Of a stretch of 64,000 bases of DNA, positions 1,769-27,611 are shown piece after piece; the stretch's first letter is position 1; each line of letters opens with the position of its first letter. Under the pieces are notes generated by a model, which saw nothing but the letters and a program-made list of their open reading frames with translations, did not search any database and was not told the origin of the DNA. The translations under genes were made by a program, and so were the position numbers. Origin of the DNA: an uncultured bacterium (GTDB lineage Bacteria > Oederibacteriota > Muellerivitia > Muellerivitales > Muellerivitaceae); the NCBI GenBank assembly GCA_964392085.1, contig CAYMOV010000005.1, forward strand, positions 5,343 through 69,342, read 5' to 3'.

Positions 1769-1857
1769 ATCCACCACAGGGACACTGGGACGGCTAAATA
1801 AAATCTTATGAAGATTTTCCGCTTCAAGTTATTCCTTCGGTCTCTGTGGTCCATGTG
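1769..1857. repeat. intergenic inverted-repeat element, copy 1 (CCACAGGGACAC...CTCTGTGG termini)
   Basis: The left arm atccaccacagggacactgggacgg (1769-1793) and right arm cggtctctgtggtccatgtg (1838-1857) match the arms of the elements at 26206-26322 and 27447-27611. A perfect nested palindrome AAAATCTT-atg-AAGATTTT lies at about 1800-1818. Confidence 0.5.
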
Positions 1858-1871
1858 TTTCAAATGTTTCC

Positions 1872-2642
1872 TTGGATATGATGTTTGAAATGGATATAAG
1901 CCCCGGCCTGTCGAAGACCTTCCCGACTAGTGACGGGGTTTCCATCGCCGTGACCCTCTCCCCCTCCGCGAATTCCGGTCGCCTGGTCATCCTCTCCCCC
2001 GGGTTCGCCCAACACCGGAACACTCCCGTGATGCGCCAACTGGCCCAGGGCCTCACGGACTTCGGGGAAGTCGCGGCGTTGGACCACCGGGGGACCGGCG
2101 GAAGCGGGGGCCGTTACGGCTTCGGCTGGAAGGAATACCTGGACCTGGAACCGCTCCTGGAATGGGGACGCCGTCGGGGAAAACAAACGGTCCTGGTCGG
2201 CTGTTCCATGGGCGGTTACCACTGCCTGAGGGCCGCGGCCGCCTGGCCCCAGTTCGTGGACCGACTGTTGATGGTATCTCCCCCGTCGGTTTTCGAGGAT
2301 GTCCTGGGGTCCGGCGGCGCTTGGCGGCAGGCCCTCCACGTCTCGAAGGATTGGAAGCTTTGGACCGTCCGGCTCCGGACCCGGCCCAACGTCTTCTTCC
2401 GCTACGGCCACCCCTTCCGGCCCAAACCCCCGGGCCGGGAACTGGCGGCCCAAATCCGGTGCCCCGCCCATATCTTGGCGGGCGAACGGGACCATTTGGT
2501 GTTCCCGTCTTTGAGCCGGGAGATCCATCGCGGCTTGGCCGGGAAGCGGAGTTGGACCTTGCGGAAGGGCGGCGAGCACGCCGAGGTGATGTATTTGCAG
2601 GACCCGGCGAGGTTTTTACGGTGGGTTGAACTGCATTTATAA
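1872..2642 (+). CDS. alpha/beta-fold hydrolase
   Basis: 256 aa. It has a GCSMGG nucleophile elbow (GxSxG) and the typical alpha/beta-hydrolase length and order. Confidence 0.75.
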   Translation: MDMMFEMDISPGLSKTFPTSDGVSIAVTLSPSANSGRLVILSPGFAQHRNTPVMRQLAQGLTDFGEVAALDHRGTGGSGGRYGFGWKEYLDLEPLLEWGRRRGKQTVLVGCSMGGYHCLRAAAAWPQFVDRLLMVSPPSVFEDVLGSGGAWRQALHVSKDWKLWTVRLRTRPNVFFRYGHPFRPKPPGRELAAQIRCPAHILAGERDHLVFPSLSREIHRGLAGKRSWTLRKGGEHAEVMYLQDPARFLRWVELHL

Positions 2643-2701
2643 ACCCGCGTCTTCAACGCCGACCCAGAAACCAGCCACACCAGTAAGTACCCCTCACCCA
2701 A

Positions 2702-2770
2702 CCCTCTCCCTCAAGGGGAGAGGGATAAAAAAAAACGCCCCGGCGGTTCCCCGCCGGGGCGTTTTTTTTA
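2702..2770. terminator. bidirectional Rho-independent terminator (two hairpins)
   Basis: There is a ccctctccc-tcaa-ggggagaggg hairpin. It is followed by an A-run, then the GC hairpin cgccccggcgg-ttcc-ccgccggggcg, then T8. Confidence 0.7.
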
Positions 2771-2812
2771 TTGCTTGGCCATCCGCTACCCGCTATCCCC
2801 CATCAGCGATTT

Positions 2813-3211
2813 TCAGCCCCCGCTTCCCACCTTGCGCGGAGCGCTGACCTGCTTCACCGACACCGTAGGGGGCTTCACCGCGGCGTTCGGGGCGTAACCG
2901 TGCGGCTTCTGCTGGTCGTGGCCGTGGTCGGTTTCATGGGGATGGTCATGATCGTGGGCGTGGTCGTGCCCATGTTCCTTCTCGTGTTCTTCCGCTTCCT
3001 TCTCGGCCTTGGCCTTGGCCGCCGCGTTCGTCTTGGCCATCTCGGCGCTTTGGGCCTCTTCGTCGATCCTCAGGTGGCACTTCTTATATTTCTTCTTGGA
3101 CCCACAGGAGCACTCGTCGTTGCGTCCCAAGGACTTGAGCCGTTCCTGCCAGCCCTCGCTGCCCAGGGCTTTCGCCGGGGCATCGGATTTCGCCTTTTTC
3201 TTGTCCGCCAT
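2813..3211 (-). CDS. SEC-C metal-binding motif protein with His-rich C-terminal tail
   Basis: Contains CSCGSKKKYKKCH (SEC-C motif) followed by a lysine/alanine-rich segment and EHEKEHGHDHAHDHDHPHETDHGHD. The internal ATG at 3211 is preceded by a GGTGGAG RBS. The longer ORF to 3421 has a non-protein-like N-terminus. Confidence 0.6.
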   Translation of the reverse strand: MADKKKAKSDAPAKALGSEGWQERLKSLGRNDECSCGSKKKYKKCHLRIDEEAQSAEMAKTNAAAKAKAEKEAEEHEKEHGHDHAHDHDHPHETDHGHDQQKPHGYAPNAAVKPPTVSVKQVSAPRKVGSGG

Positions 3212-3470
3212 GAATCTCCACCGTCCTTTCGTGCCGCCTATCCTAACCGCCTTTAACCCGCCTGAAAAGCTTCCCTCGACTGCCGCCAGGGTATTTAAGC
3301 CCCGGAATGGTCTTTCCAAGTTTGTCGTCTCTACATTCCAGGCTTTGCCTACTTTGGGTTGTGCCGTGGCTAACCGCCAACCGCTAACCGCTTGCGGTGC
3401 CGAGGCCACGAGCCGAGTCACATGCTTGGCATGTGCCGCGCAAATAGCGCGGTTCCACCTGCTGTCGTTC

Positions 3471-5138
3471 TTATTTTTTTCCCGACTTCTTCCCCTTCTT
3501 CACTTCCCGCTCCTGCCATTCCTGGTAGTCCTTGAAGGTGCCCGGGAAGTCGTTCCACTCCCCGTCGGCCTTCAGTTCCACGATTCGGGTGGCCACCTTG
3601 TCGATGAGGTCCTGGTCGTGGGTGGTGAAGAGCACCGTCCCCGGGTACTCCGCGAGGGCGTTCGAGAGCGACTCGATGGACTCCAGGTCCATGTGGTTCG
3701 TGGGCTCGTCCAACAGCAGGGTGTTGCCGCCCATCATCATCATGCGGCTGAGCATGAGTCGCTGGCACTCGCCCCCGGACAGGACCGTCACCTTCTTATC
3801 CTGTTCCTCGCCCGTGAAGAGCATCCGGCCGAGGATGCCCCGGATGAACTGGATATCCTCGTAGGGCGCGAATTGCTTGAGCCACTCGGCGCCGCTCATT
3901 TCCTCCTGCAGCTCCTCCTTGGCGTCCTGCGGCATGTAGGACAGCCTGACCGACTTGCCCCATTTGATCTCGCCCTCGTCGATGGGATGTCCCCACTTGC
4001 GGATGTACTCGCCCTTGCCGCCCTCGGGGTTGTAGGCGCCGATCAGGCTCTTGAGGAGCGTGGTCTTGCCGAAGCCGTTGGGCCCCAGGATGGCCACGCG
4101 CTCGCCCTGGCCCACCAGGAAGCTCATCCGCTTGATGACCTTCAGGTCGCCGTAGGACTTGGAGATGCTGCGGACCTCCAGCACGTCCTTGCCGAGGGGG
4201 TCCTTGGCCTTGAAGGCCAGCTTGGGGTACATCCGGCTGGAGGGGACGATCTCCTCGAGCTCGATCTTCTCGAGAAGCCGGGCGCGGCTGGTGGCCTGGG
4301 CGCTCTTGGAGGCGTTGGCGCTGAACCGGGCGATGAAGGCCTTCAGCTCCCCGATGCGCTTTTCCTTGCGCTCGTTCTCGGCCAATCGGGCCCCCAGCAC
4401 CTGGTCGCTGGCCATCTTGAAGTAGTCGTAGTTTCCCGGGTAGATGGTGATCTTCTGGCGGTCCACGTCGGCCATGTGGGTGCAGATGTTGTTGAGGAAG
4501 TGACGGTCGTGCGACACCACCAGGATGGTGCCCTCGAAGGCGTTGAGGTAGTCCTCCAGCCACTTGATGCTCCGGATATCCAGGTGGTTGGTCGGCTCGT
4601 CGAGGAGCATGAGGTCCGGCGAGGCGTAGAGGATCTGGGCCAGCAGCACCCGCAGCTTCCAACCCCCGGCCAACTGCTTCATCTGCCATTCGTGCTTGGA
4701 CGACTCGATGCCCAGGTTTTCGAGGAATTCCCCGGCCCCCGCCGTGATGGCGTAGCCGTTCTTGGCGGCGAACTCGTCCTCCAGCTCGGCGATCTTGTGG
4801 CCCTCGGCGTCGGTGAGGTTGGCCTTGGCGTACAGCCGGTCCCGCTCCTCCTGGAGCTTCCAGAGGTCTTCCCGGCCCATCAGGACCGTGTCGATGATCT
4901 TCATCTCGTCGTAGGCGTACTGGTCCTGCTTCAGCATCCCCATCTTGACGCCGCGGTCGAGGTCGATCTTCCCCTCGTCGGCGGCCATCTGCCCGGAGAG
5001 GACCTTCAGGAAGGTGGATTTGCCGGAGCCGTTGGCGCCGATGATGCCGTAGCAGTAGCCGGGCTTGAACTTCAACGTGACGTCGTCGAAGAGCGCCTTC
5101 TTGCCGAAGCGAAGGGTGAGGTTGGAGACGGAAATCAT
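3471..5138 (-). CDS. ABC-F family ATPase (tandem ABC domains, ribosome-associated translation factor type)
   Basis: 555 aa with two Walker A motifs (GANGSGKST; GPNGFGKTT), ABC signature motifs, an inter-domain linker, and a lysine-rich C-terminus. Confidence 0.9.
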   Translation of the reverse strand: MISVSNLTLRFGKKALFDDVTLKFKPGYCYGIIGANGSGKSTFLKVLSGQMAADEGKIDLDRGVKMGMLKQDQYAYDEMKIIDTVLMGREDLWKLQEERDRLYAKANLTDAEGHKIAELEDEFAAKNGYAITAGAGEFLENLGIESSKHEWQMKQLAGGWKLRVLLAQILYASPDLMLLDEPTNHLDIRSIKWLEDYLNAFEGTILVVSHDRHFLNNICTHMADVDRQKITIYPGNYDYFKMASDQVLGARLAENERKEKRIGELKAFIARFSANASKSAQATSRARLLEKIELEEIVPSSRMYPKLAFKAKDPLGKDVLEVRSISKSYGDLKVIKRMSFLVGQGERVAILGPNGFGKTTLLKSLIGAYNPEGGKGEYIRKWGHPIDEGEIKWGKSVRLSYMPQDAKEELQEEMSGAEWLKQFAPYEDIQFIRGILGRMLFTGEEQDKKVTVLSGGECQRLMLSRMMMMGGNTLLLDEPTNHMDLESIESLSNALAEYPGTVLFTTHDQDLIDKVATRIVELKADGEWNDFPGTFKDYQEWQEREVKKGKKSGKK

Positions 5139-5365
5139 GAAATCCTCAAGGGAATCAAAATGGGAGGCTGGGGGGCCCCGGGCCGGTCCTGGAAGCCGGG
5201 ATGATACACCTTCAGGGCCCTTTCACAACACCCGCCGGGACCGAAAAGAAGGCGGCGCGGGGCCCCAACGGCCCAGCCCATCCCCCGGGGGACGTTGGAC
5301 CGAAAACCCCCCAAGGGAGGTCCCAAAGAAAGGATAATGCGCGGACACCAACGGAAGTCACGGAC

Positions 5366-8300
5366 ATGGCCGACCCCCCCAAACGATCCCACCGCAAAGC
5401 CCTTCGACGGCTGGGGTATGCCCTCCTCTTGTTGGTTGCCCTCTTGGCGGCATTTTTAGGGTTCCTCACCACGCCCCCGGGCGAGAGGCTCCTGAAGGGC
5501 TGGGCCGAGGAATCCCTCTCCTCGGCGCTTCGGACCCGGGTCAAAATCGGGTCCATCGAGACCGACCTCTTGAGCCGCCTGGTCCTCCGGGACGTGCGGT
5601 TGGAAGCGGGCCCACCGGACCACCCCGACCCCTTCGTCCGTTTCTCCGTGGGCCGGGTGGATTACCAGCCCCTCGCCTTCCTGTCGAAACGGTGGTTTGT
5701 GCGCAATGTCCGGGTGGAGGACCTCGACGCGGTGCTCCGGCGCCAGGAGGACGGCACCTGGGAGTGGCCGTTCCTCCGCAAGAGCCCGGGGTCCCCATCC
5801 CAGGCCCCGAAGCCCAAGGGCTCGGGGTTCCAGGTCGACCTCCAAAAGGTGGAGTTGGCCCGTTTCAAGGTCCGGTACGACAATGAGGCCACCGGCCTCC
5901 GGGCCGCGATCGAGGGACCCGGGGGATCCTTGGAGAAAACCGGCGCCGGATGGAAAGCCTCGATGGACCTCACCCAGGTCCGCCTCCAAAACCAACGGGG
6001 GGCCGTGGTGGATGGCCAGGACCAGGGCCGGGTTGAGGCCGTCTGGTCACCGGAGAAGATCGAGTTGGAGCGCCTGGCCCTCACCCTCTTCGGCGGGAAG
6101 CTCTCGGCCCAAGGCACACTCTACCCGGGCGGGGTCATGAGGAAATTCCACCTCGCCCTGGCGGACGCCGACGCGGGGACCTTGGCGGCCTTCGCGCTCG
6201 GGAAAAAAACACCCTTTGAGGGTCGGCTCTCCTTCGACGCCGACCTCGACGGTTTGGTCTCGAAACCCCACAGCCTCACCTCAAGGGGACGCCTCACCCT
6301 GGACGACCAAACCCTCGGCGGTGATCCCCTGTTCACCTTGAACGCCGACTGGTCCCTCGCCCAAGGCCGCTTGGCCCTTTCCGCTTCCCAAGGCCCCAAC
6401 GAGATCCTGCTGAGGGCCAGCTTGGACCGGGCCGACCGGTGGAGCGGGCTTTTCACCGGGTCCATCGCGGATCCCGGGCCGCCGGCCGGCCTCCTGGGGA
6501 TCCCGAACGCCACGGGCCGTTTGGCCGCCACCGGCGACATCCGGGGATCCTTTTCCCGCCCTGAGGCGGACTTGGTCCTGTCGGGCGACAACGTCCGGTT
6601 GGACGGTTTCCCGGTGGACAGCCTGTCCGGCGGCCTCCTCCTCGGGACCGCGGGCGTCACGTTCCGCAAGGTCCAGGTCGACGGCGCCCTCCGTTCCCCC
6701 GATCCCGACCATCCGCTTTTGGGGCTCAAGTCCTGGTCCGGGGGCTTCCGTTACCACGCCGAGTTGGATGGGCCCTTGTCCGGACCCGAAGCCTCCCTGC
6801 GGGTTGATTTCACCCGGCCCGGCTTCGGCGGGATCAAGCTGGACCGGGCGGCCCTGCGGGCCACGATCCACCGGGGTGAACTCAAGCTGGACCTCTTCAA
6901 GGGCCAGCGGGATTTTGTGGTGGCCCAAGCCGTCGGGAGCCACTCCCTGAAAAAACGGACGGGTTCCCTCACGCTCTCCTTCCTGGAGGTCAAGACCAAC
7001 AAACGCAAGGGACGGAACGACGCGGGTTTCGACCGCCTGATCCCGTTGGAGAAGCTGGGGCCCGGCCGGTCGGAAAACCTGGAACTGAAATGGGCCCTCC
7101 AGGACTCCGGGGGCTTCCGTTTGGAAGCCCAAGCCGACAGCCTCAAGCTGGACAAGGTCTGGGCCTTGGCCCCCTCCGCGGCCCAAGCCGAAGGCCTCCT
7201 GGGTGTCCGCTTGGTCCTCCAACGCGAGCCCGGGGTTCCCCATCCCGGCCCGCTTGAGGTCTCCGGGGGGGTCACCCTGAGGGACGGCGCCTGGCAGGCC
7301 CAACGGGACACGGCTCCGGTGGAGAACCTCCAAGCCGTGGTCTTGTTGGATAAGTCCCGGTTGGTCCTCCAGAAGCTCCAGGGAACCGTCCACGGCCTCG
7401 CCTTGGAGCTCAAGGGATCGGCGAACCTACCAGGGTCCCGTTCGGAGAGGAAATGGGGCCTCACGCTCCTGGCGGACCGCCGGGAAGCCGCGACGGCCTC
7501 GGGCACCTTCGCCCCGGATCGGTTGGAACTCCAGGTCGGCCTGGCGAAACTTCCCGCCCAGGCGTTGGAACCCTTCCTCCCTTTCTTTTCCGGCATGGGT
7601 GGGGAACTCACCGGGCGGTTCAAGATCTCGGGAACCCCTTCTTCCCCCCGGTTGAACGGTCCCCTCACCGTGGAGGACCTCTCGTTCTTTCTCCCGATCC
7701 TCAACGCGAAAATCACCCAAGGAAACCTCACGGCGGCGTTCAACGGGCAACGGCTTGACTTGGCGGAATCCAAGCTCCTGTTCAACGGGGGCCCCGTCAC
7801 CCTCCAAGGCGGGTGGGACTGGGGCCAGGGTCAGGAGGATTTCGGGGTCGAGGCGAACTTCGCCAAGGTCAAGGTCGACCTGCCCCACCTCCTGTCCGGG
7901 ACCATCGATACCGGGCGGGCATCCTGGAAATCCTCCGAGGGAGGGTACCTCCTGGAGGGCGACCTGGATCTGGCCTCCGCGAAATGGCAGAAGGACTTCG
8001 CGGTTTCGGAGCCTTCCTCCCCGCCGGACCTGCCGCCTTTCCTGGCCCAAACGCGGTTTTCGGTCCGCTTCCGGGGGACCCATGACGCCTACCTCGACAA
8101 CAACTGGGGACGGATCGAGGTGGACGCCGACGCCGCCCTGGCCGGCACCTGGGCCGCCCCGACCCTGCTGGGCCAGTTCCAGGCCCTGGGCGGCAAGGTC
8201 TTCTACCTCGACCGGAAGTTCAACGTGGCCGAGGGGTCGGCGCAGTTCAACGACGCCACCCAGGTAAACCCCCTTCTTCACCTTTTGGCGGAAACCACCG

Positions 8301-8827
8301 TCCGGTCCTACGGCCTCACGGGAACGCCCTTGGACTACTCCGTCGTCCTGTCCATCGACGGTCCACTGGACCAGATGAGGCTCAACCTCATCTCCGACCC
8401 CGTGCTGGACTCCGCCGACATCGTCTCGCTCCTCACCCTGGGAGCCACCCGCAACCAGATCCTCGTGAGGAACCCCGGGGGGCCCGCCGCCGGGGACCAG
8501 ATCGTCAGCCGGGCGGGGTCCTTCACGACGAACACCCTGGCGGACTATTCCGCCCGGAAGGTCGGGCGGATCATCGGTTTGGAGGACCTCAGCGTGGAGG
8601 GCAACCTCTGGGGGGCCGGGGGCGCGTCCACCACCGATCCACGAATCAGCGCCACCACCCGGGTCAGCGACCGGATCAGCGTGACCTACAGCACTTCAGC
8701 GGGCCGGGACCTCAACCAATCGGTCAAGGTCGGTTATTACCTATCCAACCGGTTCTCCGTGGTCACCCAGGCCGGCCAAACGGGCGCCTCCAGCCTCGAC
8801 CTCAGCTATCGGATGCTCTTCAAATGA
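5366..8827 (+). CDS. tamB: TamB-like translocation and assembly module protein (AsmA-like, DUF490 C-terminus)
   Basis: The ATG at 5366 gives MADPPKRSHRK followed by a single N-terminal TM helix. The roughly 1150-aa body is repetitive and beta-rich. The C-terminus reads GYYLSNRFSVVTQAGQTGASSLDLSYRMLFK, typical of TamB. The stop overlaps the next start as ATGA. Confidence 0.85.
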   Translation: MADPPKRSHRKALRRLGYALLLLVALLAAFLGFLTTPPGERLLKGWAEESLSSALRTRVKIGSIETDLLSRLVLRDVRLEAGPPDHPDPFVRFSVGRVDYQPLAFLSKRWFVRNVRVEDLDAVLRRQEDGTWEWPFLRKSPGSPSQAPKPKGSGFQVDLQKVELARFKVRYDNEATGLRAAIEGPGGSLEKTGAGWKASMDLTQVRLQNQRGAVVDGQDQGRVEAVWSPEKIELERLALTLFGGKLSAQGTLYPGGVMRKFHLALADADAGTLAAFALGKKTPFEGRLSFDADLDGLVSKPHSLTSRGRLTLDDQTLGGDPLFTLNADWSLAQGRLALSASQGPNEILLRASLDRADRWSGLFTGSIADPGPPAGLLGIPNATGRLAATGDIRGSFSRPEADLVLSGDNVRLDGFPVDSLSGGLLLGTAGVTFRKVQVDGALRSPDPDHPLLGLKSWSGGFRYHAELDGPLSGPEASLRVDFTRPGFGGIKLDRAALRATIHRGELKLDLFKGQRDFVVAQAVGSHSLKKRTGSLTLSFLEVKTNKRKGRNDAGFDRLIPLEKLGPGRSENLELKWALQDSGGFRLEAQADSLKLDKVWALAPSAAQAEGLLGVRLVLQREPGVPHPGPLEVSGGVTLRDGAWQAQRDTAPVENLQAVVLLDKSRLVLQKLQGTVHGLALELKGSANLPGSRSERKWGLTLLADRREAATASGTFAPDRLELQVGLAKLPAQALEPFLPFFSGMGGELTGRFKISGTPSSPRLNGPLTVEDLSFFLPILNAKITQGNLTAAFNGQRLDLAESKLLFNGGPVTLQGGWDWGQGQEDFGVEANFAKVKVDLPHLLSGTIDTGRASWKSSEGGYLLEGDLDLASAKWQKDFAVSEPSSPPDLPPFLAQTRFSVRFRGTHDAYLDNNWGRIEVDADAALAGTWAAPTLLGQFQALGGKVFYLDRKFNVAEGSAQFNDATQVNPLLHLLAETTVRSYGLTGTPLDYSVVLSIDGPLDQMRLNLISDPVLDSADIVSLLTLGATRNQILVRNPGGPAAGDQIVSRAGSFTTNTLADYSARKVGRIIGLEDLSVEGNLWGAGGASTTDPRISATTRVSDRISVTYSTSAGRDLNQSVKVGYYLSNRFSVVTQAGQTGASSLDLSYRMLFK

Positions 8828-9012
8828 CCCGGCCCCCTTCACCGAATCCTCAACAGGACGGTTTGTCCTGGGTCCATGAAATGGGGGCCGCCCTCATTTC
8901 CCCGCGCGGGCCCTGCCCGCGGATGCCCAAAACAATGGTGAGGGGGCGGAAAATGAACCCCAACGACACAATGGCCCGGGTTGGGCGATCCCTGAATTTC
9001 CCATGCTCCAAG

Positions 9013-12989: not shown

Positions 12990-13003
12990 TTAAGTCCCCT
13001 TCA

Positions 13004-13050
13004 AAAGCAGTTTTGAGTTTTAAATTTTAAGTCGGCTTAAAACTCAAAAT
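13004..13050 (-). terminator. AT-rich Rho-independent terminator of the sulfite reductase gene
   Basis: A perfect 13-bp inverted repeat ttttgagttttaa / ttaaaactcaaaa with a 14-nt loop. On the minus strand it is followed by cTGCTTTTg. The 80-bp spacer is strongly AT-rich relative to the genome. Confidence 0.55.
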
Positions 13051-13070
13051 TTAAAATCGAGAACTTCAGT

Positions 13071-17776: not shown

Positions 17777-17814
17777 AAAAAAAGGCCCGGCGCCCCCAAG
17801 GGGACGCCGGACCT
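17777..17814 (-). terminator. Rho-independent terminator of the 17835..19160 gene
   Basis: On the minus strand: ggtccggcgtcccc-ttg-ggggcgccgggcc followed by T8. Confidence 0.65.
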
Positions 17815-17834
17815 GGATTCAACCAACCGGGAAA

Positions 17835-19356: not shown

Positions 19357-19629
19357 CTAATGGCCCGACCCTGGGCTGAAAACGGGCGGGCGCGCTGGGG
19401 TCGAGACCGGGAAGACCGTATGGGGTTCGAAATGGAGATCCGATAACCGAACGACCAACCGGTAATCCCCCGGATGGGCCAGGTCCTCCACGAAGGCCCT
19501 GCGCCAAAGGTCGATGTCCAGGACCCGCACCTTCATCCCGCGAAACAAGGCCGTTTGCCCGACGAACCAGCGGCGCAATTCCTCCCGTCGAACCTGCGGG
19601 AGGGGTTCTTGGATATCCGGTTGGGCCAT
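19357..19629 (-). CDS. hypothetical protein
   Basis: About 90 aa, downstream of the PQQ-repeat gene on the same strand. The ATG at 19629 has a GAGGTG RBS, and a GTG at 19638 is also possible. No recognisable motif. Confidence 0.35.
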   Translation of the reverse strand: MAQPDIQEPLPQVRREELRRWFVGQTALFRGMKVRVLDIDLWRRAFVEDLAHPGDYRLVVRLSDLHFEPHTVFPVSTPARPPVFSPGSGH

Positions 19630-19707
19630 GGGAGACACCTCAGGCCGCCCATTCTACTCCCGGCCACGGCCTGACAAAAGATGGTTCTAGAAGGCCTTTT
19701 GTCGGGT

Positions 19708-22700
19708 TTATCGGAGCAGGACCAAAGGCAGGACATACCGGCGGACTGGAGTCGTCAACACCAGGTAATACAGGCCGTCCGAGAGCGGCGCGCCCCGCCG
19801 GTCCCGGGGATCCAAGGGGACGGACCATTCCCCCGCCTTGATATTCGTAAAGGACCACTCCGCGATTTTCCGGTAGGCCGTCGTGAAGACCGCGACGCGC
19901 ACCCAAGCCTGGGGACTTTCCCAGTTGGCCGAAAGGGTCAGGGGTCCCGTTCCCCGCCAGGGGTTTGGAAAGAGGACCGGGGGCTCCGGACCCACGCCCG
20001 CCGTCCCGGTCGGGGTCGGCGACGGGGACCCGGTCCAGGTCGGAGTGGCCGTCACGGAAGCCGTCGGCGTGCCCATAGGACTCGGTGACGGGGACGCAGT
20101 CTCGGTCGCGCTCGGTGTAACGGTCCAGGTGGACGACGGTGTTTCCGTCCACGAGGCCGTCGGGGTGGCGGTCCGGGTCGGCGGGGGCGGCGTTGCCGAA
20201 GGCGTAGGGCTTGAGGTGAGGGACGCCGTCCCGGTTGGAGAAGGCGTTGAAGTGTCGACCGGGGGCGCCGTCGGGCTAGGCGTCAACGTTGACGAATGGG
20301 TTGGGGTTGTTGTTGTAGTCGGCGTCCCACTCGCCGTCCCAGTCGGCGTTAAGGAAGCTGTCCCGCTCGCCGTGGGGCTTGGGGACGGGGACGCAGTCTC
20401 GGTCGCGCTTGGAGTCCGGGAGGGCGACGCCGTCGGCGTCCCGCTTGGGCTCGGGGAGGCGGTTGAACTGGCGGTCGCTGAAGCCGTGGGCGTAGCCGAC
20501 GGGGTCGGCGTAGTCGAATCCGTCGAGGTGCGGGTCGGCGAGGCGGTGGCGGTACTGGTCGCCGTCGCCGAAGCCGTGGCCGTCCGGGTCGGGGTCGCCG
20601 TAAACGTCGCGGATGGTGTCGGGGTGGCCGTGAGGGTCGAGGAATAGGTGGCCGTGAAGGTGGCTGTCCCAGTCGGCGTTGATGAAGCTGTCCCGCTCGC
20701 CGTGGGGCTCGGGGACGGTGACGGAGTCACGGTCGCACTTGGAGTCTGGGAGGGCGACGCCGTCGGCGTCCCGCTTGGGGTGGAGGTCCTGGTCGCCGAG
20801 GCCGTGGCCGTCCAGGTTCGGGTCGCCGTCAACGTCGCCGAGGAGGTCGGGGTGGCGGTGGGAGTCGAGGAAAAGGTAGCCGTGAAAGTACCCGTCCCAG
20901 TCGGCGTTAACGAAGCCGTCCCACTCGCCGTGGGGCTCGGGGACGGTGACGGAGTCACGGTCGCGCTTGGAGTCCGGGAGGGCGACGCCGTCGGCGTCCC
21001 GCTTGGGGTCGGGGACCGGGTGGACGTCGCCGTGGCCGTCAAGGTAGCCGTGGAGGTTCTGGTCGGGGTGGCGGTGGGCGTAGACGTCCAGGTCGGCGTG
21101 GCCCCCCCGATCAAGCCGTACACCACCAGCTGGCCGGCGGCCGGGACATAGACCTTCCCGTTGACGATGCTGGGCGGCGTGAACTTCACGTTGGCCGCCA
21201 CGGCGCTGTCCCGGGCCGCGTTTTGGGAGCTGTTGTAGAGCTCGGTGGCCAGGTTCGTGGCGTCGTAGGCGTGCAGGACCGCGGGGGTGCCGGGTTGGAT
21301 CGCCCAAACGATGCCGTTCGTCGTTCCGTTGGAGGACACGCTGGGAACGCAACCCGGGTAGGCGTAGGTGGCCGAGGTCTGGGAGGAGGCCGTGGTGTTG
21401 TAAAGGCCGTTCGCCAGGCTGAAGGCCCGGAGCACCTGCCCCGACATGCCCCAATAGACGAAGCCGTTGAAGATCGCGGGGTTGGTGAATCCCGCGTTGG
21501 TGGCGGCCGTCCCGACGTGGAATTCCTGGACGTCGTTGTCCGTCGCGGCGTTGTAATGTCCCATGTTGTCCCGGTCCACCAGGTACACCTCCCCCGTCTT
21601 GGCGCCTCCTGTCATGAGGTGGGGATGGGCCGCGCTGCCGTAGGAATCCGGCAAAAGCACGCCTCCGGTGGAGCCCAAGTCCTGGTCGGTGTTGCTGAGG
21701 GTGCCCTGGTTCGAGGGCGTGAAGTAGTCCGCCGGGGTGAGGGCCGTGACCCCGGCCGTCAGTTTGAGGAAGCTGTCGCCGTAGTCCCGCCCCCCCGTGT
21801 TGGCGTCGAAAGTGCCGTTCGCGGTGAGGACAAACAGGTTTCCTGAGGCATCCACCATCGGGGCCCCGCCGCTGTTCCAGAGGGACGCCTCGCTCCCGTC
21901 GGGCGCCACGTTGTAGACGATGGTCTGTTGGCTGATGTCCGAGGCGTTGTAGCCGATGATCCAGCCCTGGTAGGTGCCCCAGTTGTTCAGGTCACAGTGG
22001 GAGGTCCAGGAGGTGTAGATCACCCCGTTGGACTCGACCAATCCGCATCGTTCCTTGTAGGCCCGTGCATTGAAGGTATCCGTCGTCCCTCCCTGGCCCG
22101 TCCCCGGCACGCTGGCCTGGACCGTGGTGGGGCCGTTCGCCGCCTCGGCCCCGGAGGAGAGGTCGAGCGCGTGCAGGACCTGGTAGAACTGCGTCACGGG
22201 GCCCGCGGTCACCTGCTTGATCATCCCCACCAGGTAGATCTTCCCCTTCGCCGGGTCGATATAAGGCGTGTCGGTGATGCCGATCTCCGGGGTGATCTGG
22301 GTGCAATTCGCCACGTCGGCCAGGGCCACCGTGGTGACCCCGGCGGCCGCGTTCAGGAAACTGACCTGCCAAAGCGGCGCTTGGGGGGAATCGGCGTCGA
22401 AGGCGTAGACGCTGTCGTGCTCCGTGCAGACATAGACCACGTTGTGGTTGCCCTTGCCCAAAATCGCCTGGTTGGGGACGTAAAGGGGTTGGCCGTAAAT
22501 CTGGCCGTCGACCGCGTCGGAATACAGCTTGCCGAAGGTCGCTTGGTTGACGACCGACGTCGAGAGGATCGTCTCGTTGGGGTTGAGTCCCGTGCGGGAA
22601 TCGTCGTTATGGTAGGACAATAGGGGGGTCTGGCCCCAGGCGGCGCCCACGAGGGTGACCGAGAGGGCGAGGATCAAGTTGTGGGCAAGCCGCGCAGGAC

Positions 22701-22716
22701 GGAATAAGGGCGCCAA
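19708..22716 (-). CDS. secreted PQQ-like beta-propeller protein with triplicated Pro/Thr/Ser-rich repeats and a C-terminal sorting (T9SS/Por-type) domain
   Basis: Signal peptide MAPLFRPARLAHNLILALSVTLVGAAWG. The ~490-aa N-terminal domain has repeated PQQ-type blades (VYAFDADS, GKIYLVG, GNLFVLT, GEVYLVD, GFVYWGMSG, GKVYVPAAGQ). Three ~48-aa repeats TPSGTPTASPSRTPSATVTPSPSPSPTASGTASLTPTGTG follow. The C-terminus reads VLFPNPWRGTGPLTLS...LYYLVLTT. Confidence 0.85.
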   Translation of the reverse strand: MAPLFRPARLAHNLILALSVTLVGAAWGQTPLLSYHNDDSRTGLNPNETILSTSVVNQATFGKLYSDAVDGQIYGQPLYVPNQAILGKGNHNVVYVCTEHDSVYAFDADSPQAPLWQVSFLNAAAGVTTVALADVANCTQITPEIGITDTPYIDPAKGKIYLVGMIKQVTAGPVTQFYQVLHALDLSSGAEAANGPTTVQASVPGTGQGGTTDTFNARAYKERCGLVESNGVIYTSWTSHCDLNNWGTYQGWIIGYNASDISQQTIVYNVAPDGSEASLWNSGGAPMVDASGNLFVLTANGTFDANTGGRDYGDSFLKLTAGVTALTPADYFTPSNQGTLSNTDQDLGSTGGVLLPDSYGSAAHPHLMTGGAKTGEVYLVDRDNMGHYNAATDNDVQEFHVGTAATNAGFTNPAIFNGFVYWGMSGQVLRAFSLANGLYNTTASSQTSATYAYPGCVPSVSSNGTTNGIVWAIQPGTPAVLHAYDATNLATELYNSSQNAARDSAVAANVKFTPPSIVNGKVYVPAAGQLVVYGLIGGATPTWTSTPTATPTRTSTATLTATATSTRSPTPSGTPTASPSRTPSATVTPSPSPSPTASGTASLTPTGTGTFTATFSSTPTATPTSSATLTATRTWTATASATRTSTPSGTPTASPSQTPSATVTPSPSPSPTASGTASSTPTGTATFTATYSSTLTATPTPSATFTATPTRTATASATATSTATASPTRTSTDSTTPTPSATPTASATASSTASPSPSGTPTASPSRTPSATETASPSPSPTASGTASLTPTGTASGTPTTTTTPTHSSTLTPSPTAPPVDTSTPSPTGTASLTSSPTPSATPPPPTRTATPTASWTETPSSTWTVTPSATETASPSPSPMGTPTASVTATPTWTGSPSPTPTGTAGVGPEPPVLFPNPWRGTGPLTLSANWESPQAWVRVAVFTTAYRKIAEWSFTNIKAGEWSVPLDPRDRRGAPLSDGLYYLVLTTPVRRYVLPLVLLR
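20040..21120. repeat. tandem DNA repeats encoding the PT-rich linker of the 1002-aa gene
   Basis: Near-identical blocks at about 20348, 20688 and 20918, for example cgccgtggggctcggggacggtgacggagtcacggtcgc...gggagggcgacgccgtcggcgtcccgcttgggg. They generate the long alternate-frame ORFs in the track. Confidence 0.6.
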
Positions 22717-22985
22717 GGTTCCCTCGGACGGGATCCGCGAGGCGACCCCGTTTCATTGGATTGGAGAAGGGCGAATTGTACCGCAGGCCTGTTCAAATAG
22801 ATGGAAGGGGGCGAAAAGACGGGTTGGTGGGGGAAAACGCTCAACCCGGCGTTAACCTCAGGGGACCGACCATTTTTTGAGGTTGAATCCAAGGAATGAA
22901 CTGGGTCAGGCGGGGACCCATCGGTTTAAGGACGGGATTCCTGCCCTTGGGGCGACCCCGATCAAGCCGAACCGGGAGGTTCGAG

Positions 22986-23795
22986 CTATCCGCTTACCGG
23001 GCCGAACTGGGTGGAGACGTCCCCGGGGAAAATCGCGGGTCCGATGTGGGTCAAGCGGCTCTGGAGGTCCAACCAGATCTCGCCGCCCTTGTCCGTCCAG
23101 CGTTGGCAAAAGCTGAAATCCTCGCTGAGGTAGGTGTTCGTGGCCTGGTCCAGGATGCAGTTGAACAGGGCGTACCGCCAGGGGCTGTCGCGGAGGGAAT
23201 CCTGGTTCTGGTGGTGGCGCCCGTACTTGAGTTCCGGGTACCAGTCGACCATTTTCTCCAGGGCCCGGCGCTTCAGGAGCATGAACCCCGTACCGGCGTA
23301 GCGCACCTTCGCGAAACCGCCCTTCGACTCGATCCGAGCCGGGTTCTCAAACTCCATGACATAGGAAAGCGACGCGGATTCCAGGGAGCCCCGGCCCTCC
23401 TTCACGAGGGCCTCCACCTTCGGCCAATCGTATTTCTTGGCGGGATAAACCCCCGCTGAGAAGTCGGCCGCGAAGTCCAGGAGCCGGAAGGCCTGCTCGG
23501 GCTCAAACGCGATGTCGGCGTCCACGAACAACAGGTGGGTCGCGGAAGGGGTCCCGAGGAATCGCGCCGTCAGGTCCTGGCGGGCGCGGGTGATGAGGGC
23601 GTCCCCCCAGGACATCCAAATCGTGATCTCGATGCCCCGGGCCGTGCAGGCGGCCTGAAGTTTCAGGAGCGACGCCGCGTAGCTGCTCATGACTTGGCCG
23701 CCGTAACAGGGCGTGGCCACCACGAGGTGCATCTTTGGTTCGGACATGCGGCCCTCCCGGTCGCAAAACATCAATTCACCGCTCCTCGCGCTCAC
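22986..23795 (-). CDS. putative glycosyltransferase (GT-A-like, DxD)
   Basis: It carries MHLVVATPCYGG followed by a DAD motif (LLFVDADIAF) and a conserved C-terminal block YLSEDFSFCQRW. The true start is probably the internal ATG at 23732 (MHLVV). Confidence 0.5.
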   Translation of the reverse strand: MSARSGELMFCDREGRMSEPKMHLVVATPCYGGQVMSSYAASLLKLQAACTARGIEITIWMSWGDALITRARQDLTARFLGTPSATHLLFVDADIAFEPEQAFRLLDFAADFSAGVYPAKKYDWPKVEALVKEGRGSLESASLSYVMEFENPARIESKGGFAKVRYAGTGFMLLKRRALEKMVDWYPELKYGRHHQNQDSLRDSPWRYALFNCILDQATNTYLSEDFSFCQRWTDKGGEIWLDLQSRLTHIGPAIFPGDVSTQFGPVSG

Positions 23796-23804
23796 ATCAA
23801 CCCT

Positions 23805-23826
23805 TCATGAACGCGGGTCAGTCCCT
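23805..23826. repeat. 22-nt motif TTCATGAACGCGGGTCAGTCCC (copy 1 of 2)
   Basis: The motif recurs with 20/21 identity at 38922-38945 and includes the palindrome TTCATGAA. It lies in the 56-bp spacer between the helicase stop and the glycosyltransferase start. Confidence 0.4.
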
Positions 23827-23851
23827 GTGGTGATTTGTGGTTGTTGTTAGT

Positions 23852-25576
23852 TTAAAACCATTTTCCGAGCCACTTCTTGATCTGGGATTCCTTGTCCTGG
23901 CCCCCGGCGTTCCCGCGGTTGTCCGGCCGGCGGTTGCGGTCGTTGGGGAACCGGTTGCCCCGGTTGTCGTCGCGCGAGGAGGAGTTCCCGCCCCGACCGG
24001 CGCCCGGTCCCCTGCGGTTCGCGTCCTGGCCCGGGCGGTTTCGGTCACCGCCTTGTCCCGGGCGGTGTCCCGGGTTAGTCCCGGACGGCCTGCCGGAGTG
24101 GGGAGGGGCGTTGCGGTCGCGGCCGCGGAAAGGTCCCTGGTTCTGTCGGTGGGTCTCAAAACCCGCACGGTTCCCGTCCACCTCGTGGGGAGCGGCGCCG
24201 GCCGGAGCGCTGGAACCCGGCCGGGGGTTGCGGTCCCGGCCCTGGTTCGAACCCTGCCGGTGTCCTTGCGGTTGTCCCTGGTGCGGTTGGGAAGGACGCC
24301 CTTGGGGCCTGCCCTGGGACTGGCCTTCCGGACGCGAGGGACCCCTTGACGAATTCTGGGAACGTCCTTGGGGACGTTGTCCCTGGGAGTGGCGCTGGTT
24401 CGGCTGGGAGGAACCCGGCCGGAAGGCCGGCTGGGGATTGATCGCGGCGGCGTGGTCCGTGAAATGGGAGGGCAGGTTGGTGATGGCCACGCGGCCTTCG
24501 CCCAGTTCCTTCAGGATGTCCTTCCATTGACCGGCGTCCTCGGGCGTCAGGAAGGTCAGGGAATCCCCCTCGGCCCCCGCGCGCGCCGTCCGGCCGATCC
24601 GGTGCAGGTAGTCCTCGGGGTTCTGGGGCAGGTCGAAGTTGATGACGTGGGCGATGTGCTGGATGTCGAGCCCGCGGGCCGCGATGTCGGTGGCCACGAG
24701 GATGCGGCTCGACCCGTTCTTGAACTGCTCCAACGCCATGCGGCGCTGGCCCTGGGTGCGGCCGCCGTGGATTCGGACGGCCGACAGCCCCTTGTCCTTC
24801 AGCTTCTGGAGGGTGCGGTCCACGCGGTGTTGGGTGCGGGCGAAGAGCAGGACGGACCCCTCACGGGCCTGGAGCTCGGCGATCAGGTCGTCGAACTTGC
24901 GGCCCTGGCTGGTGTTCATGACCTTCTGGCGGATCTTCTCCACGGCCCGGGACTCGCCGCCCACGGCCACCCGCACCGGCGAGCGCAGGTACTGGTGGGC
25001 CAAGGACTGGATGTCCGGCGGGATCGTGGCGGAGAACATCAAGGTCTGGCGGTCATGGGGCAGTTTGACGCGGATCTTGTTGAGCTGGGGCGCGAAGCCC
25101 ATGTCCAGCATCCGGTCCGCCTCATCCAGCACCAGGAAACCGGTGCGGGACAGGTCCAGGGTGCGGCGTTCCATGTGGTCGATGATCCGGCCGGGCGTCC
25201 CGATGATGAGCCGGGTACCGCGCTTGAGGGCGTCCACCTGGGCGCCCATTCCCATGCCGCCGATCAGGAGGGCGGAATTCAGGTCGCCCCGGTTGCCGGC
25301 CAATTGGCGGAGCACTTCGCGCACCTGGTCCGCCAGTTCGCGGGTGGGAGTGAGGATGAGGGCCGTCTGGCCCGGGTGGGCGGCGAGGTAGCTCAACAGG
25401 GGGATGCCGAAGGCGGCGGTCTTGCCCGAGCCGGTTTCGGCGGAGGCCACGACGTCCTTGCCCTCGAGGCCGGGGGGGATGGACTGGGCCTGGATGGGGG
25501 TAGGTTTCTCAAACTTCATCTTCACCAGCGACTCGTGCAAAAAGGCGGGTAACGCCAACTCCTGGAAGCTTTCCAT
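23852..25576 (-). CDS. rhlE: DEAD-box ATP-dependent RNA helicase with ~200-aa RG/Q/N-rich disordered C-terminal tail
   Basis: Q-motif, AETGSGKT (Walker A), DEAD, SAT and HRIGRTAR motifs in order. The tail is RGG/QG-rich and ends KKWLGKWF. Confidence 0.9.
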   Translation of the reverse strand: MESFQELALPAFLHESLVKMKFEKPTPIQAQSIPPGLEGKDVVASAETGSGKTAAFGIPLLSYLAAHPGQTALILTPTRELADQVREVLRQLAGNRGDLNSALLIGGMGMGAQVDALKRGTRLIIGTPGRIIDHMERRTLDLSRTGFLVLDEADRMLDMGFAPQLNKIRVKLPHDRQTLMFSATIPPDIQSLAHQYLRSPVRVAVGGESRAVEKIRQKVMNTSQGRKFDDLIAELQAREGSVLLFARTQHRVDRTLQKLKDKGLSAVRIHGGRTQGQRRMALEQFKNGSSRILVATDIAARGLDIQHIAHVINFDLPQNPEDYLHRIGRTARAGAEGDSLTFLTPEDAGQWKDILKELGEGRVAITNLPSHFTDHAAAINPQPAFRPGSSQPNQRHSQGQRPQGRSQNSSRGPSRPEGQSQGRPQGRPSQPHQGQPQGHRQGSNQGRDRNPRPGSSAPAGAAPHEVDGNRAGFETHRQNQGPFRGRDRNAPPHSGRPSGTNPGHRPGQGGDRNRPGQDANRRGPGAGRGGNSSSRDDNRGNRFPNDRNRRPDNRGNAGGQDKESQIKKWLGKWF

Positions 25577-25807
25577 TCTTATCCTTAGGTGGGTTTATGG
25601 GCCTGCGGTAGGCGCCCACTTTACGCTATTAGGGGCCTTTTGGGGGGGTCTTCGTGGAAACGGGCTTCCCCTTTGGCCTTCCCGCCCATCCGGGAAGCCG
25701 GCGCGCTCCGACAAACCCCGGGAGGGCTGGACTTTACATTAGTAATATCTTATATACTAATACACGAAACAGCCGGGCCTTCCGGCCGTACCTAACAGGA
25801 GTCTCCC

Positions 25808-26191
25808 ATGAACAGCTGGATGATTGGGGCGGTTGTCGCGGTGGTGGTGTTCTTCTTCCTCAAGCCCTCGGTGCCGTCGGCGGCGCGGTTGTCCCCCACG
25901 AGGGTGCGGGAGGACATGAGGAGCGGGAAGGACCTCCAACTCATCGATGTCCGGACGCCGGAGGAGTTCCGCTCCGGCCACCTGCCCGGCGCCCGCAACC
26001 TGCCCCTCGACGGCCTCGACGCCGGCGCCAAGACCCTGGACCCGAACAGGCCGCTGATCGCCTATTGCCGCGGCGGCCACCGCAGTTCCATGGCCCTGAA
26101 GATTTTGGCCGCCAAGGGCTTCACCCAGGCCAAGCACATGGAGGGCGGGATCTCCGCCTGGTCCGCCGCCGGCTTCCCGGTCATCCGGTAA
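25808..26191 (+). CDS. single-domain rhodanese-like sulfurtransferase with N-terminal TM/signal anchor
   Basis: 127 aa, with the active-site loop YCRGGHRS. Confidence 0.8.
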   Translation: MNSWMIGAVVAVVVFFFLKPSVPSAARLSPTRVREDMRSGKDLQLIDVRTPEEFRSGHLPGARNLPLDGLDAGAKTLDPNRPLIAYCRGGHRSSMALKILAAKGFTQAKHMEGGISAWSAAGFPVIR

Positions 26192-26205
26192 CGGCAACCG
26201 CTTAT

Positions 26206-26322
26206 ATCACCACAGGGACACGGAGACACAAGAGTAAGCCCTCCAAAACGCAAATCATTTACCCTTTTAAAAAAAGGAAGTGCGTCCTTCGCTTTATTGT
26301 GCCCCTGTGTCTCTGTGGTGAA
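26206..26322. repeat. intergenic inverted-repeat element, copy 2
   Basis: Arms atcaccacagggacacggagacacaa (26206-26231) and ttgtgcccctgtgtctctgtggtgaa (26297-26322) flank a 65-bp AT-richer core. It sits between the rhodanese stop and the nmrA stop. Confidence 0.5.
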
Positions 26323-26339
26323 TCATCGTGGTTGTGGCC

Positions 26340-27239
26340 TTACGCCTTGGCGAAGGCAGGCGCCATGCCCCGCACAAACTCCTCCACCGAAGTCTTGCCC
26401 CGGTGGGTCCCCTCCAGTTTCTGCGTGGGTTCCACCCGCCCCTCGTTGAAGGCGCGGTTCATCTGGATCATCAATTCCGCCATATCCGGCTTCATGCCGC
26501 TCCCCACCATCCCCTGCTTGGCGTCCTCATAGGGGAACTGCACGTAGGGCAGGCCGAACTTGCCGATGACCGCGCCGATGAGCGAGGCCACCTCGGCCAG
26601 GGTCACGTCGCGCGGCCCGGCGAACTCGAACGGCACGTTTCCCTTGAACGACAGCTTGTCCAGGAAATCGGCGGCCGCGGCCCCGATGTCCCCCGTGGCC
26701 ACCATGCCGATGCGTAGGTCGGGGCGGATCGGCGTCCCCAAAACCCCCATGCCTTGGATCACCGGGATGGACCAAAGAAGGTTCTCCATGAAATACCCCG
26801 GCCGCAGTTGCAGGACGTTCAAGCCCGGGATCGAAGCCAGGCGTTCCTCCTGCCGGTGCAGGTTCACGATGGGCCCCGTCCCCTCGGTCCGGTCCGCCCC
26901 GATGGAACTTAGGTGCACGACGTACTTCACGCCGGAGTCTTTCACGGCCTTCGCGATGGCCTCCCCGGTTCGGTTCTGGTAGGCGGAGAAATCGGCCTCG
27001 TCGTAGGCGGGCGGGATCATGACGAACACCCCGTCCGTTCCCCGGAAGGCCGCCGTCAGGGCGGACGCGTCGTCGAACGCGAGGGGATGGGGCTCGGCGC
27101 CCTTGAGCCTGAGGGCCTCCATCTTGACCAGCGTGCGGCCCAGGGCGCGGACCCCGTGGCCCTTCTTCAGCAGTTCCTCGGTCAGGACCTGGCCGATATG
27201 GCCCGTGGCCCCCATGACGGCGTAAGTGCGGTTCGGCAT
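26340..27239 (-). CDS. NmrA-family NAD(P)-binding protein
   Basis: 299 aa. It starts with YAVMGATGHIGQ (GxxGxxG) and has the NmrA/SDR-atypical fold order. Confidence 0.85.
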   Translation of the reverse strand: MPNRTYAVMGATGHIGQVLTEELLKKGHGVRALGRTLVKMEALRLKGAEPHPLAFDDASALTAAFRGTDGVFVMIPPAYDEADFSAYQNRTGEAIAKAVKDSGVKYVVHLSSIGADRTEGTGPIVNLHRQEERLASIPGLNVLQLRPGYFMENLLWSIPVIQGMGVLGTPIRPDLRIGMVATGDIGAAAADFLDKLSFKGNVPFEFAGPRDVTLAEVASLIGAVIGKFGLPYVQFPYEDAKQGMVGSGMKPDMAELMIQMNRAFNEGRVEPTQKLEGTHRGKTSVEEFVRGMAPAFAKA

Positions 27240-27446
27240 GCTCGTTCCCCCTGGGTGGTTTGGATGGTTGGGGTAATTTGGCCTTTTCCCGCCTGGGTTT
27301 CAAGGGGTCCCATGAAACCAATCGATGTGACGCCACGCAGGCTTTCCAGGCAAACAGGCAACCAAAAACGGAAAACATCAAAAGTTATGGAGCCACCGAT
27401 GAACACGGATGAACGCCGATAATGCCATAACATCTGAATGAGAGGG

Positions 27447-27611
27447 AACCACAGATTCACACGGATGCACACCGATTTGGCGAAGGCTCATGGGATGGGA
27501 TCGAACGTCGCTCCCGTCAAATAAAAGAAACACTCACCAGAACTATTTCGCTTAGTTTCACAGTCAAATCATAAAGTTGTATCTGTGTGAATCCGTGTGC
27601 ATCTGTGGTTG
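27447..27611. repeat. intergenic inverted-repeat element, copy 3
   Basis: Arms aaccacagattcacacggatgcacacc (27447-27473) and ctgtgtgaatccgtgtgcatctgtggttg (27583-27611). It lies in the low-GC spacer upstream of nmrA and is followed by a terminator. Confidence 0.5.

Follow-up and report, generated by a model that had tools for sequence, protein, structure and literature searches.

The 64,000-nucleotide (nt) stretch at positions 5,343 to 69,342 of contig CAYMOV010000005.1 (GenBank assembly GCA_964392085.1), from an uncultured bacterium of the Muellerivitaceae (Oederibacteriota) and called the window here, carries four small intergenic elements, E1 to E4, that lack open reading frames (ORFs) and are bounded by inverted arms. 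The elements are real and belong to a very widespread hairpin family that also has a longer form bearing a gene for a GxxExxY protein, and these longer cassettes are found in spacers where other taxa have no insert. Together with the relics found in the window, E1 to E4 are probably ORF-less, partly decayed members of this insertional, cross-phylum family of hairpin cassettes. The four elements, in window coordinates, are as follows.

E1, 1769..1854, no strand: short ORF-less hairpin element with an AT-rich core and terminal 11-mers ACCACAGGGAC / GTCTCTGTGGT.
E2, 26207..26321, no strand: best-preserved ORF-less element, arms TCACCACAGGGACACGGAGACACAA / TTGTGCCCCTGTGTCTCTGTGGTGA with 21 of 25 positions paired, core of 65 nt.
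E3, 27447..27610, no strand: ORF-less element with a 10-nt unit, CCACAGATT-CACACGGATG-CACACCGAT, 27 of 30 positions paired, core of 104 nt.
E4, 32340..32443, no strand: ORF-less element, arms AACCACGGGGAAGGCGGAGGGCACGGAGGAA / TTTCTCCGTGACCCCCTTTTACCCCGTGGTT with 24 of 31 positions paired, core of 36 nt.

The three loci that a sequence-only reading had reported (E1 to E3) are present where it placed them; its list missed E4, a clear fourth member, as well as small relics and a probable half element at 27392-27420. When the window is scanned without bias for inverted repeats with partners within 300 nt, the E3 arms (27447-27476 / 27581-27610, 30 nt, 90% complementary) rank first and the E2 arms (26207-26231 / 26297-26321, 25 nt, 84%) rank fifth. 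The same scan recovers the arms of E4 at 32343-32373 / 32410-32440 (31 nt, 77%), with ends AACCACGG...CCGTGGTT. Of the arms first claimed for the three loci, those of E1 are weaker than described: clean pairing is confined to the terminal 11-mers (13 matches over 23 positions without gaps). The left-arm consensus proposed with them describes E2 and E3 but, in E1, no more than the first half. The proposed membership of E1 rests on these exact 11-mers, which are common to E1, E2 and the canonical family.

All four elements have the inverted outer ends ACCAC(A/G)G ... C(T/C)GTGGT. At least three tandem 8–10-nt units of the form C(A/G)C(N)G(A/G)G per arm, mirrored in the opposite arm, are clear in E2, E3 (with a 10-nt period) and E4, and E1 preserves the first unit alone. 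The loops are 33–104 nt long, and the cores are AT-richer than their surroundings, as had been described (GC content 0.27–0.44 vs 0.63 for the window). The sequence-only reading had also proposed folding the elements as RNA and counting their motif. E2 (z –5.8 on the + strand and –4.9 on the – strand), E4 (z –4.2 and –5.2), E1 on the + strand (z –3.1, vs –1.3 on the – strand) and the full E3 region (z –3.4) fold better than shuffled sequences. As for the motif, the window has no excess of the hexamer CCACAG (19 occurrences vs about 32 expected), whereas the longer ACCACRGRGR is enriched (8 found vs 2.1 expected, with 7 of the 8 inside elements), and the signal therefore sits in the longer arm and not in the hexamer. 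A two-arm pattern derived from E1 and E2, ACCACAGRGAC...GTCYCTGTGGT, matches these two elements in the window, where no match is expected by chance. Scans of the window returned no Rfam family at the gathering threshold and no transfer RNA (tRNA) or tmRNA.

Among species-representative genomes (one genome per species), at least 120 stretches match the two-arm pattern, against about 14 chance matches under a uniform-composition estimate. Hosts among the matches listed include Acidobacteriota, Planctomycetota, Verrucomicrobiota, Chloroflexota, Alpha-, Beta- and Gammaproteobacteria, Desulfobacterota, Gemmatimonadota, Chlamydiota, Elusimicrobiota, Armatimonadota, Spirochaetes and Firmicutes (Sporomusa), with one archaeal match (Methanotrichaceae) and several from cultured isolates; copies were later found in Bacteroidota too. 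The arms of E1 to E4 are thus not specific to their source genome, occurring in at least nine phyla and one archaeon. An architecture common to 126 copies among the matches listed is NNN-ACCACAGAG-ACACAGAG-RCACAGAG-(variable core)-CTCTGTGY-CTCTGTGT-CTCTGTGGT-N'N'N'. The canonical arm starts with (T)NN-ACCAC(A/G)G and continues into at least three tandem 8–10-nt units (CACAGAG, CGCAGAG, CACGGAG and others). The trinucleotide next to ACC on the outside is usually TTC/GAA, TTA/TAA or TGA/TCA, with an A-rich left flank and a T-rich right flank beyond it. The elements show strand symmetry, and conservation does not extend to their loops. At locus L044 (1924-2107), an element has been duplicated locally in tandem along with part of its flank: two copies of 81 nt follow each other in direct orientation, each with the same 15 nt of left flank. 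The ORF context of the short elements brings out their proximity to stop codons and is otherwise blurred by noisy ORF calls in high-GC DNA.

The arms of the canonical copies covary. Across 45 aligned copies, 94.6% of cells pair; of the 29 pairs, 19 vary on both sides, while the 10 invariant pairs all fall among the 11 positions per arm (10 fixed and one R/Y) that were preset by the search pattern. The covariation score of 0.237 exceeds those of shuffles (0.10) and slid controls (about 0.06). A covariance model with an 8-nt period, R1, built from the canonical copies of other genomes, returns E2 (E 5e-9) and E4 (E 4e-6) in the window, both clearly above background, and E1 at E 9e-4. Apart from one tRNA, Rfam gave no family match in 18 loci with canonical copies.

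The longer form was found among the unpaired arms of the fetched loci. In L046, a metagenome-assembled genome of Verrucomicrobia, a left and a right arm lie 430 nt apart and enclose a 170-amino-acid GxxExxY ORF (TIGR04256, E 8e-45; PF13366 PDDEXK_3, E 4e-43), and a short copy lies 60 nt upstream of the long one. In an unbiased sample, metagenome contigs were scanned with an alignment of the GxxExxY protein core only, which gave 80 loci at 53–85% identity. Although these genes were picked by the protein core alone, inverted-repeat arms bracket 67 of the 75 that have enough flank, at distances from the core of 32–125 nt for the left (upstream) arm and, usually, 11–80 nt for the right (downstream) arm. 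These arms are tandem 8–10-mers (CACAGAG, CGCAGAG, CACGGAG, CGCCGAG, CAGTGAG, CACGAAG and CACAAAG), always mirrored, and arms with a 10-nt period bracket GxxExxY genes too (L153 and L203). A hidden Markov model of the arms that bracket GxxExxY genes, built without window sequence or the two-arm pattern, has as its sole matches in the window the two arms of E2 (E 0.014 and 0.075).

Over all loci, the distance between arms is bimodal, with 89 pairs at 0–100 nt that hold no ORF and about 47 at 350–580 nt. The long class measures about 450–600 nt and contains one small GxxExxY gene; members of the short class lack a gene, and their core stays below about 100 nt. Cassettes and ORF-less copies co-occur in other genomes, and rare units can be common to the short and long forms of one locus (CACCGAG in L144, CACGAAG in L169 and CGCAGAG in L190; also L127). 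In L144, the core of the short copy consists of the cassette leader and trailer joined at TTGAATTCAG / TTGGATTCAG. No other cargo was found between arms in the 1.17 Mb of fetched loci, and no PF05635 gene was found there. Bacteroides finegoldii provides a further case: a 24.8-kb record, a chromosomal fragment by its gene content, carries three ORF-less copies (R1 E 2e-8 to 5e-7) beside its single cassette. One of these ORF-less copies has a 10-nt unit and contains an 18-mer, ATCTGTGTGAATCCGTGT, that is also present in E3. Through this shared 18-mer, E3 is tied to the family.

A search with the conserved core of the L046 protein returned more than 8000 clusters of close relatives, and relatives at 80% identity occur in Opitutaceae and Magnetospirillum. 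Annotated GxxExxY proteins (P0001-P0120) begin with MNH(K/E)DTExQR and often end in LLLCASVSLWF, which are the translated left and right arms. Since the terminal extensions are arm translations, many annotated starts and stops of these proteins are probably wrong. The protein is a putative nuclease of the PD-(D/E)XK fold (TIGR04256 / PF13366), and its AlphaFold model has a mean pLDDT of 87.4. PDDEXK_3 has been listed as 'unknown, multiple transfers' (PMC3424549). Searches of PDB by sequence, of PADLOC, of PHROG and of phages gave no match to the protein. The literature on GxxExxY, PF13366 and TIGR04256 consists of passing mentions only; no paper was found for the arm sequence, and the link between arms and GxxExxY is undescribed in the searchable literature, which lacks most subscription journals. 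The FopS small RNA (sRNA) family of Bacteroides is distinct from these elements.

Cassettes of cultured isolates sit in operon spacers. In B. finegoldii, the cassette (arms TTCACCACAGAGGACGCAGAGGACACGGAGG / CTCTGTGACCTCTGTGTCCTCTGTGGTGAA) fills the spacer between radA and the next gene; in Bernardetia, it lies between an ade gene and a mannose-1-phosphate guanylyltransferase gene; and in Sphingomonas parapaucimobilis, a cassette with the unit CGCGAAG fills the fabD-fabG spacer. In S. paeninsulae, fabD and fabG are separated by about 30 nt, with no cassette. The two genes lie about 440 nt closer together in S. paeninsulae, Methylobacterium, Rhizobium and Shinella, so that the site is empty in taxa that differ at genus to class level. 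In 46 of 61 cases, the GxxExxY gene has the same orientation as the gene upstream of it.

Copies also change in place. A close relative, L123, whose NmrA is 92% identical, has E2 at the same site with CGCAGAG units on both arms; the core of its E2 has another length and another sequence, although identity in the flanking spacer is about 95%. The arm mismatches of 55 cassettes comprise 48 G-T and 41 A-C pairs, with no sense-strand bias. From this, we infer that arm complementarity is kept by processes at the DNA level and not by selection on one RNA strand. Template switching in quasi-palindromes is an established process that can yield covariation in DNA palindromes without selection on RNA.

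These observations are best accommodated if the elements are insertional and probably selfish DNA. They would land in short intergenic spacers, often within operons and less than about 20 nt from a stop codon, and the short forms would be internally deleted cassettes or non-autonomous copies. Quasi-palindrome template switching, together with conversion between copies, may keep the arms complementary. An inserted element would add a stem of 20–30 bp to the transcripts that cross it, and this stem is a likely substrate of RNase III, by analogy with the intervening sequences (IVSs) of 23S ribosomal RNA (rRNA); cleavage by RNase III would excise the element from the RNA and keep its cost low.

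A number of points count against this explanation. The sole comparison of a filled with an empty site is between species, at about 73% nucleotide identity, and concerns the long form; no precise empty site was found for the short element. Target-site duplications, which belong to the strict definition of a miniature inverted-repeat transposable element (MITE) and were to be looked for if the elements were of that kind, are absent from the 126 canonical copies beyond the palindromic TA of TTA/TAA ends, and none is visible at E1 to E4. The window holds no GxxExxY ORF within its 64 kb. R1 scores ordinary terminator hairpins at E 4e-4 to 8e-3, and E1 (9e-4) scores no better; E3, with its 10-nt period, was not found by this 8-nt-period model. 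Five contigs of the same population have E2 and E3 in unchanged form, with no sign of current activity there. Foldseek matches of the GxxExxY model in the PDB are weak (E >= 0.055), and nearly all of them are PD-(D/E)XK enzymes (lambda/alkaline exonuclease, Cas4 SSO0001, archaeal tRNA-splicing endonuclease and Hjc resolvase). Processing of the elements by RNase III would be a pure analogy, and the GxxExxY gene could be a secondary insertion into hairpins that already existed.

This last point leads to the strongest of the competing explanations, in which the hairpins came first as host structures under selection (transcript-end protectors, processing sites or terminators) and the GxxExxY genes are a separate mobile unit that landed in their loops. 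We regard it as unlikely, although several observations speak for it. The elements lie near stop codons, with A-rich left and T-rich right flanks, and in several cassettes (L148, L195 and L202) the inverted repeat reaches 8–25 nt beyond ACC in copy-specific sequence, as expected if the insertion was into a pre-existing hairpin. The short core of L144, with leader and trailer joined at a 10-nt direct repeat, can be read as the insertion of an ORF module, and IVSs of rRNA replace hairpin loops (PMC4990558). Conversely, near-identical 25-nt arms across phyla and the 18-mer common to the window and Bacteroides would be unexpected if the hairpins had arisen independently, and, on the sense strand of the arms, G-U mismatches (48) are not in excess of A-C ones (41).

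The setting of the elements in the window bears on the same question. E1 lies between co-oriented hemerythrin and alpha/beta-hydrolase genes, 12 nt past the hemerythrin stop and about 18 nt before the hydrolase start; the rhodanese and nmrA genes converge on a spacer that is filled by E2; E3 lies between the terminator of an AI-2E transporter gene and the upstream region of nmrA, about 200 nt upstream of that gene; and E4 lies between the stop codon of a GH2 glycosidase gene and a co-oriented 143-amino-acid ORF. E1, E2 and E4 each begin 12–16 nt past a stop codon. A T-run is absent from E1 to E3, and a terminator scan of 26000-27800 reported neither E2 nor E3 but only an ordinary, bidirectional terminator at 27646-27663, directly beside E3. 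Elsewhere in the window, terminators are likewise ordinary GC-rich hairpins followed by a T-run. E1 to E4, whose loops of 33–104 nt exceed the 3–8 nt of an intrinsic terminator, were therefore rejected as the terminators of the window, which argues against hairpins kept by the host for that role.

It is improbable that the elements are genes for small structured RNAs (sRNA-like molecules or riboregulators). Their predicted folds are strong (z to –5.8) and their stems covary clearly, but this covariation can come from template switching without selection on RNA, and the arms show no sense-strand G-U bias. Strand symmetry, unconserved loops, the lack of an Rfam match in the window and the 18 loci with canonical copies, and the lack of any promoter-like site near E2 or E3 also argue against RNA genes.

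Least credible of all is that the arms are iteron-like arrays of binding sites for a regulator of nmrA and other neighbours, a version of the regulator-site interpretation that the sequence-only reading had offered beside its MITE/REP-like one. Tandem short repeats are the kind of sequence that proteins bind, and E3 and the solo arm next to it do lie upstream of nmrA; yet E2 sits between two gene ends, E1 and E4 occupy spacers of about 115–135 nt between co-oriented genes, the period is mostly 8 nt and thus out of phase with the DNA helix, and the same arms recur in unrelated gene contexts in many phyla, including between convergent genes and in operon spacers. Orthologous copies in close relatives carry different units, and the unit shifts from genome to genome while the arms stay complementary.

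The positions of E2 and E3 on either side of nmrA had been correctly noted, but this bracketing looks incidental, as the two have units of different types (8-nt vs 10-nt period) and E3 is some 200 nt away from nmrA, beside an ordinary terminator. A composite transposon, in which E2 and E3 would mobilise nmrA, was rejected on the same difference and because L123 keeps E2 at the same site. In a comparison of nmrA loci for presence or absence of the elements, also put forward earlier, homologues at about 62% identity lie in unrelated contexts without elements and, lacking synteny, are uninformative on presence or absence; L123 (92%) retains E2. By name alone, NmrA homologues at about 56% identity would make the source organism a probable relative of Planctomycetota. 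A regulatory role for nmrA is not implied, and E1 to E4 should be annotated as repeat elements, not as nmrA regulatory sites.

The MITE/REP-like interpretation, on the other hand, is supported and extended to a widespread, interspersed hairpin family with an ORF-bearing long form, and comparison with known systems shows where this family departs from them. Like MITEs (Correia, ERIC and RUP), the elements are small, ORF-less, multi-copy, intergenic and foldable, with terminal inverted repeats, and a longer gene-bearing relative has the same ends. Unlike MITEs, no target-site duplication was detected, the gene-bearing relative has no recognised transposase, its sole gene encoding the predicted PD-(D/E)XK-fold protein, and the inverted repeats vary by compensatory or concerted change, whereas those of MITEs are a fixed transposase-binding sequence. 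Repetitive extragenic palindromic (REP) sequences, with REPINs and their RAYT partners, are likewise short, dense extragenic palindromes, mostly near gene ends, with genome-specific variants, doublets and tandem arrays, and with a single-gene partner of nuclease or transposase type in the same genomes. The present family differs in its ACCAC(A/G)G head, in place of the GTAG/CTAC head that precedes a 20–40-nt palindrome in REPs, and in arms that are tandem arrays of 8–10-mers. Its associated gene encodes GxxExxY and not Y1_Tnp, and lies inside the hairpin, whereas RAYT is an HUH/Y1 protein flanked by separate REPs. The arms cross phyla, whereas REPs are lineage-specific.

The IVSs of rRNA offer the third comparison. 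RNase III cuts the IVS of Coxiella burnetii 23S rRNA, a 428-nt sequence with a 28-bp terminal stem and an S23p ORF of about 14 kDa; short IVSs without an ORF also exist, and how IVSs arose is unexplained (PMC4990558). The resemblance extends to an element of about 430 nt with a terminal stem of about 28 bp and one ORF of about 120–130 amino acids, to ORF-less short versions and to a sporadic, horizontal distribution; E1 to E4 and their relatives have a stem of about 20–30 bp that encloses nothing or one small ORF. They differ in lying between protein genes, in a window that contains no rRNA, in a long-form cargo that is GxxExxY and not PF05635, and in a unit that is CACAGAG-like and not AGGGTTC-like. 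Genes outside rRNA for the four-helix-bundle 'IVS protein' (PF05635) were sought with a consensus query that was checked against Pfam (E 7.5e-52). Those at L207-L215 are squeezed into spacers of about 44 nt, flanked on both sides by inverted tandem 8-mer arrays of another unit, AGGGTTCN / GAACCCT; the architecture is therefore common to two unrelated small-protein families. Tentatively, and with clearly less confidence than in the assignment of E1 to E4, we propose an undescribed class of mobile cassettes bounded by hairpins of inverted octamer arrays, found in many bacterial phyla and at least one archaeon, with a minimal PD-(D/E)XK nuclease (GxxExxY) or, in a sister branch, the four-helix-bundle protein as cargo, which would insert in operon spacers and hairpin loops, give rise to abundant ORF-less derivatives and be tolerated because RNase III would cut them from host transcripts at the terminal stem, with the IVSs of rRNA as a special case.

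The cassettes, with their gene cargo and abundant gene-less copies, have consequences beyond this window. GxxExxY and four-helix-bundle proteins are among the largest small bacterial protein families of unknown function, and status as hairpin-cassette cargo gives both a genomic context. It also links them to the origin of rRNA IVSs, unexplained since 1990. Translated arms explain many odd N- and C-terminal extensions of annotated proteins. Contig breaks in metagenome assemblies are explained as well: the L123 contig (JGI 3300028800) ends, at its position 1, on the edge of the region of E3 and the solo arm (about 27384 in the window), where the repeats probably break assemblies. Cultured Bacteroides and Sphingomonas carry the elements, which makes the question experimentally tractable.

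Beside the four elements, the window contains partial copies and possible relics.

Solo arm, 27392..27420, + strand: three tandem 10-mers, CCACCGATGAACACGGATGAACGCCGAT, with the partner arm absent.
Remnant, 23821..23833, – strand: the 'solo arm' of the sequence-only reading, TCACCACAGGGAC on the – strand, between a DEAD-box helicase gene and the next gene.
Possible degenerate member, 38889..38955, no strand: ACCACGGAGGCCAAGTCCCGCG...CGCGGGACAGTCCCGTCCTCC with the inner hairpin GTCCCGCG/CGCGGGAC and a 17-mer common to the 23820 site.
Mini relic (tentative), 37483..37512, no strand: TCCCACGGATTCACGCCGATTTAACCGTGGGA, E3-type units, with a weak R1 match (E about 5-10).

The solo arm at 27392-27420 is probably a half element adjoining E3. 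The arm reported near 23820 is real, and a 99.9%-identical contig from another assembly (L001) has 38 extra nt at this site, ACGTCCCGCG...CGCGGGAC, which restore an inner hairpin. The indel (window 23796-23851 vs L001 13380-13500) falls exactly at the solo arm and is bounded by GGGAC direct repeats; the extra segment is itself a small hairpin, GTCCCGCG...CGCGGGAC. Given these 38 nt, the window allele is a variant that arose by deletion between the GGGAC repeats of a fuller hairpin, one of the subtype seen at 38889-38955; the change looks like a slippage deletion of a palindrome. A 17-mer, GAACGCGGGWCAGTCCC, occurs twice in the window (23809-23825 and 38929-38945; 0.1 expected), adjoining an ACCACRG arm both times, which suggests an element subtype with an inner GTCCCGCG/CGCGGGAC hairpin. 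The locus at 38889-38955, which R1 did not detect at E<10, is assigned to the family tentatively. Exact-protein look-ups returned no record for the hemerythrin and, for the rhodanese, near-identical contigs only, without polymorphism.

Other features of the window stand apart from these elements. An 81-nt spacer at 12990-13070 (GC 0.30) contains an AT-rich inverted repeat, AGTTTTGAGTTTTAAATTTTAAGT / ACTCAAAATTTAAAATCGAGAACT, that is unlike E1 to E4. A 1002-amino-acid ORF at 19708-22716 (– strand) has internal DNA repeats of about 120–250 nt at 87–94% identity (20333-21045) and unusually high GC at codon position 2, and probably encodes a repeat-rich secreted or surface protein. Finally, in the region 58366-61593, two adjacent genes at 58366-59658 and 59660-61099 (– strand) have a much lower third-position GC (0.52–0.61 vs about 0.85); the gene pair is followed by a 494-nt spacer with a GC content of 0.44, and the region may be a horizontally acquired island.

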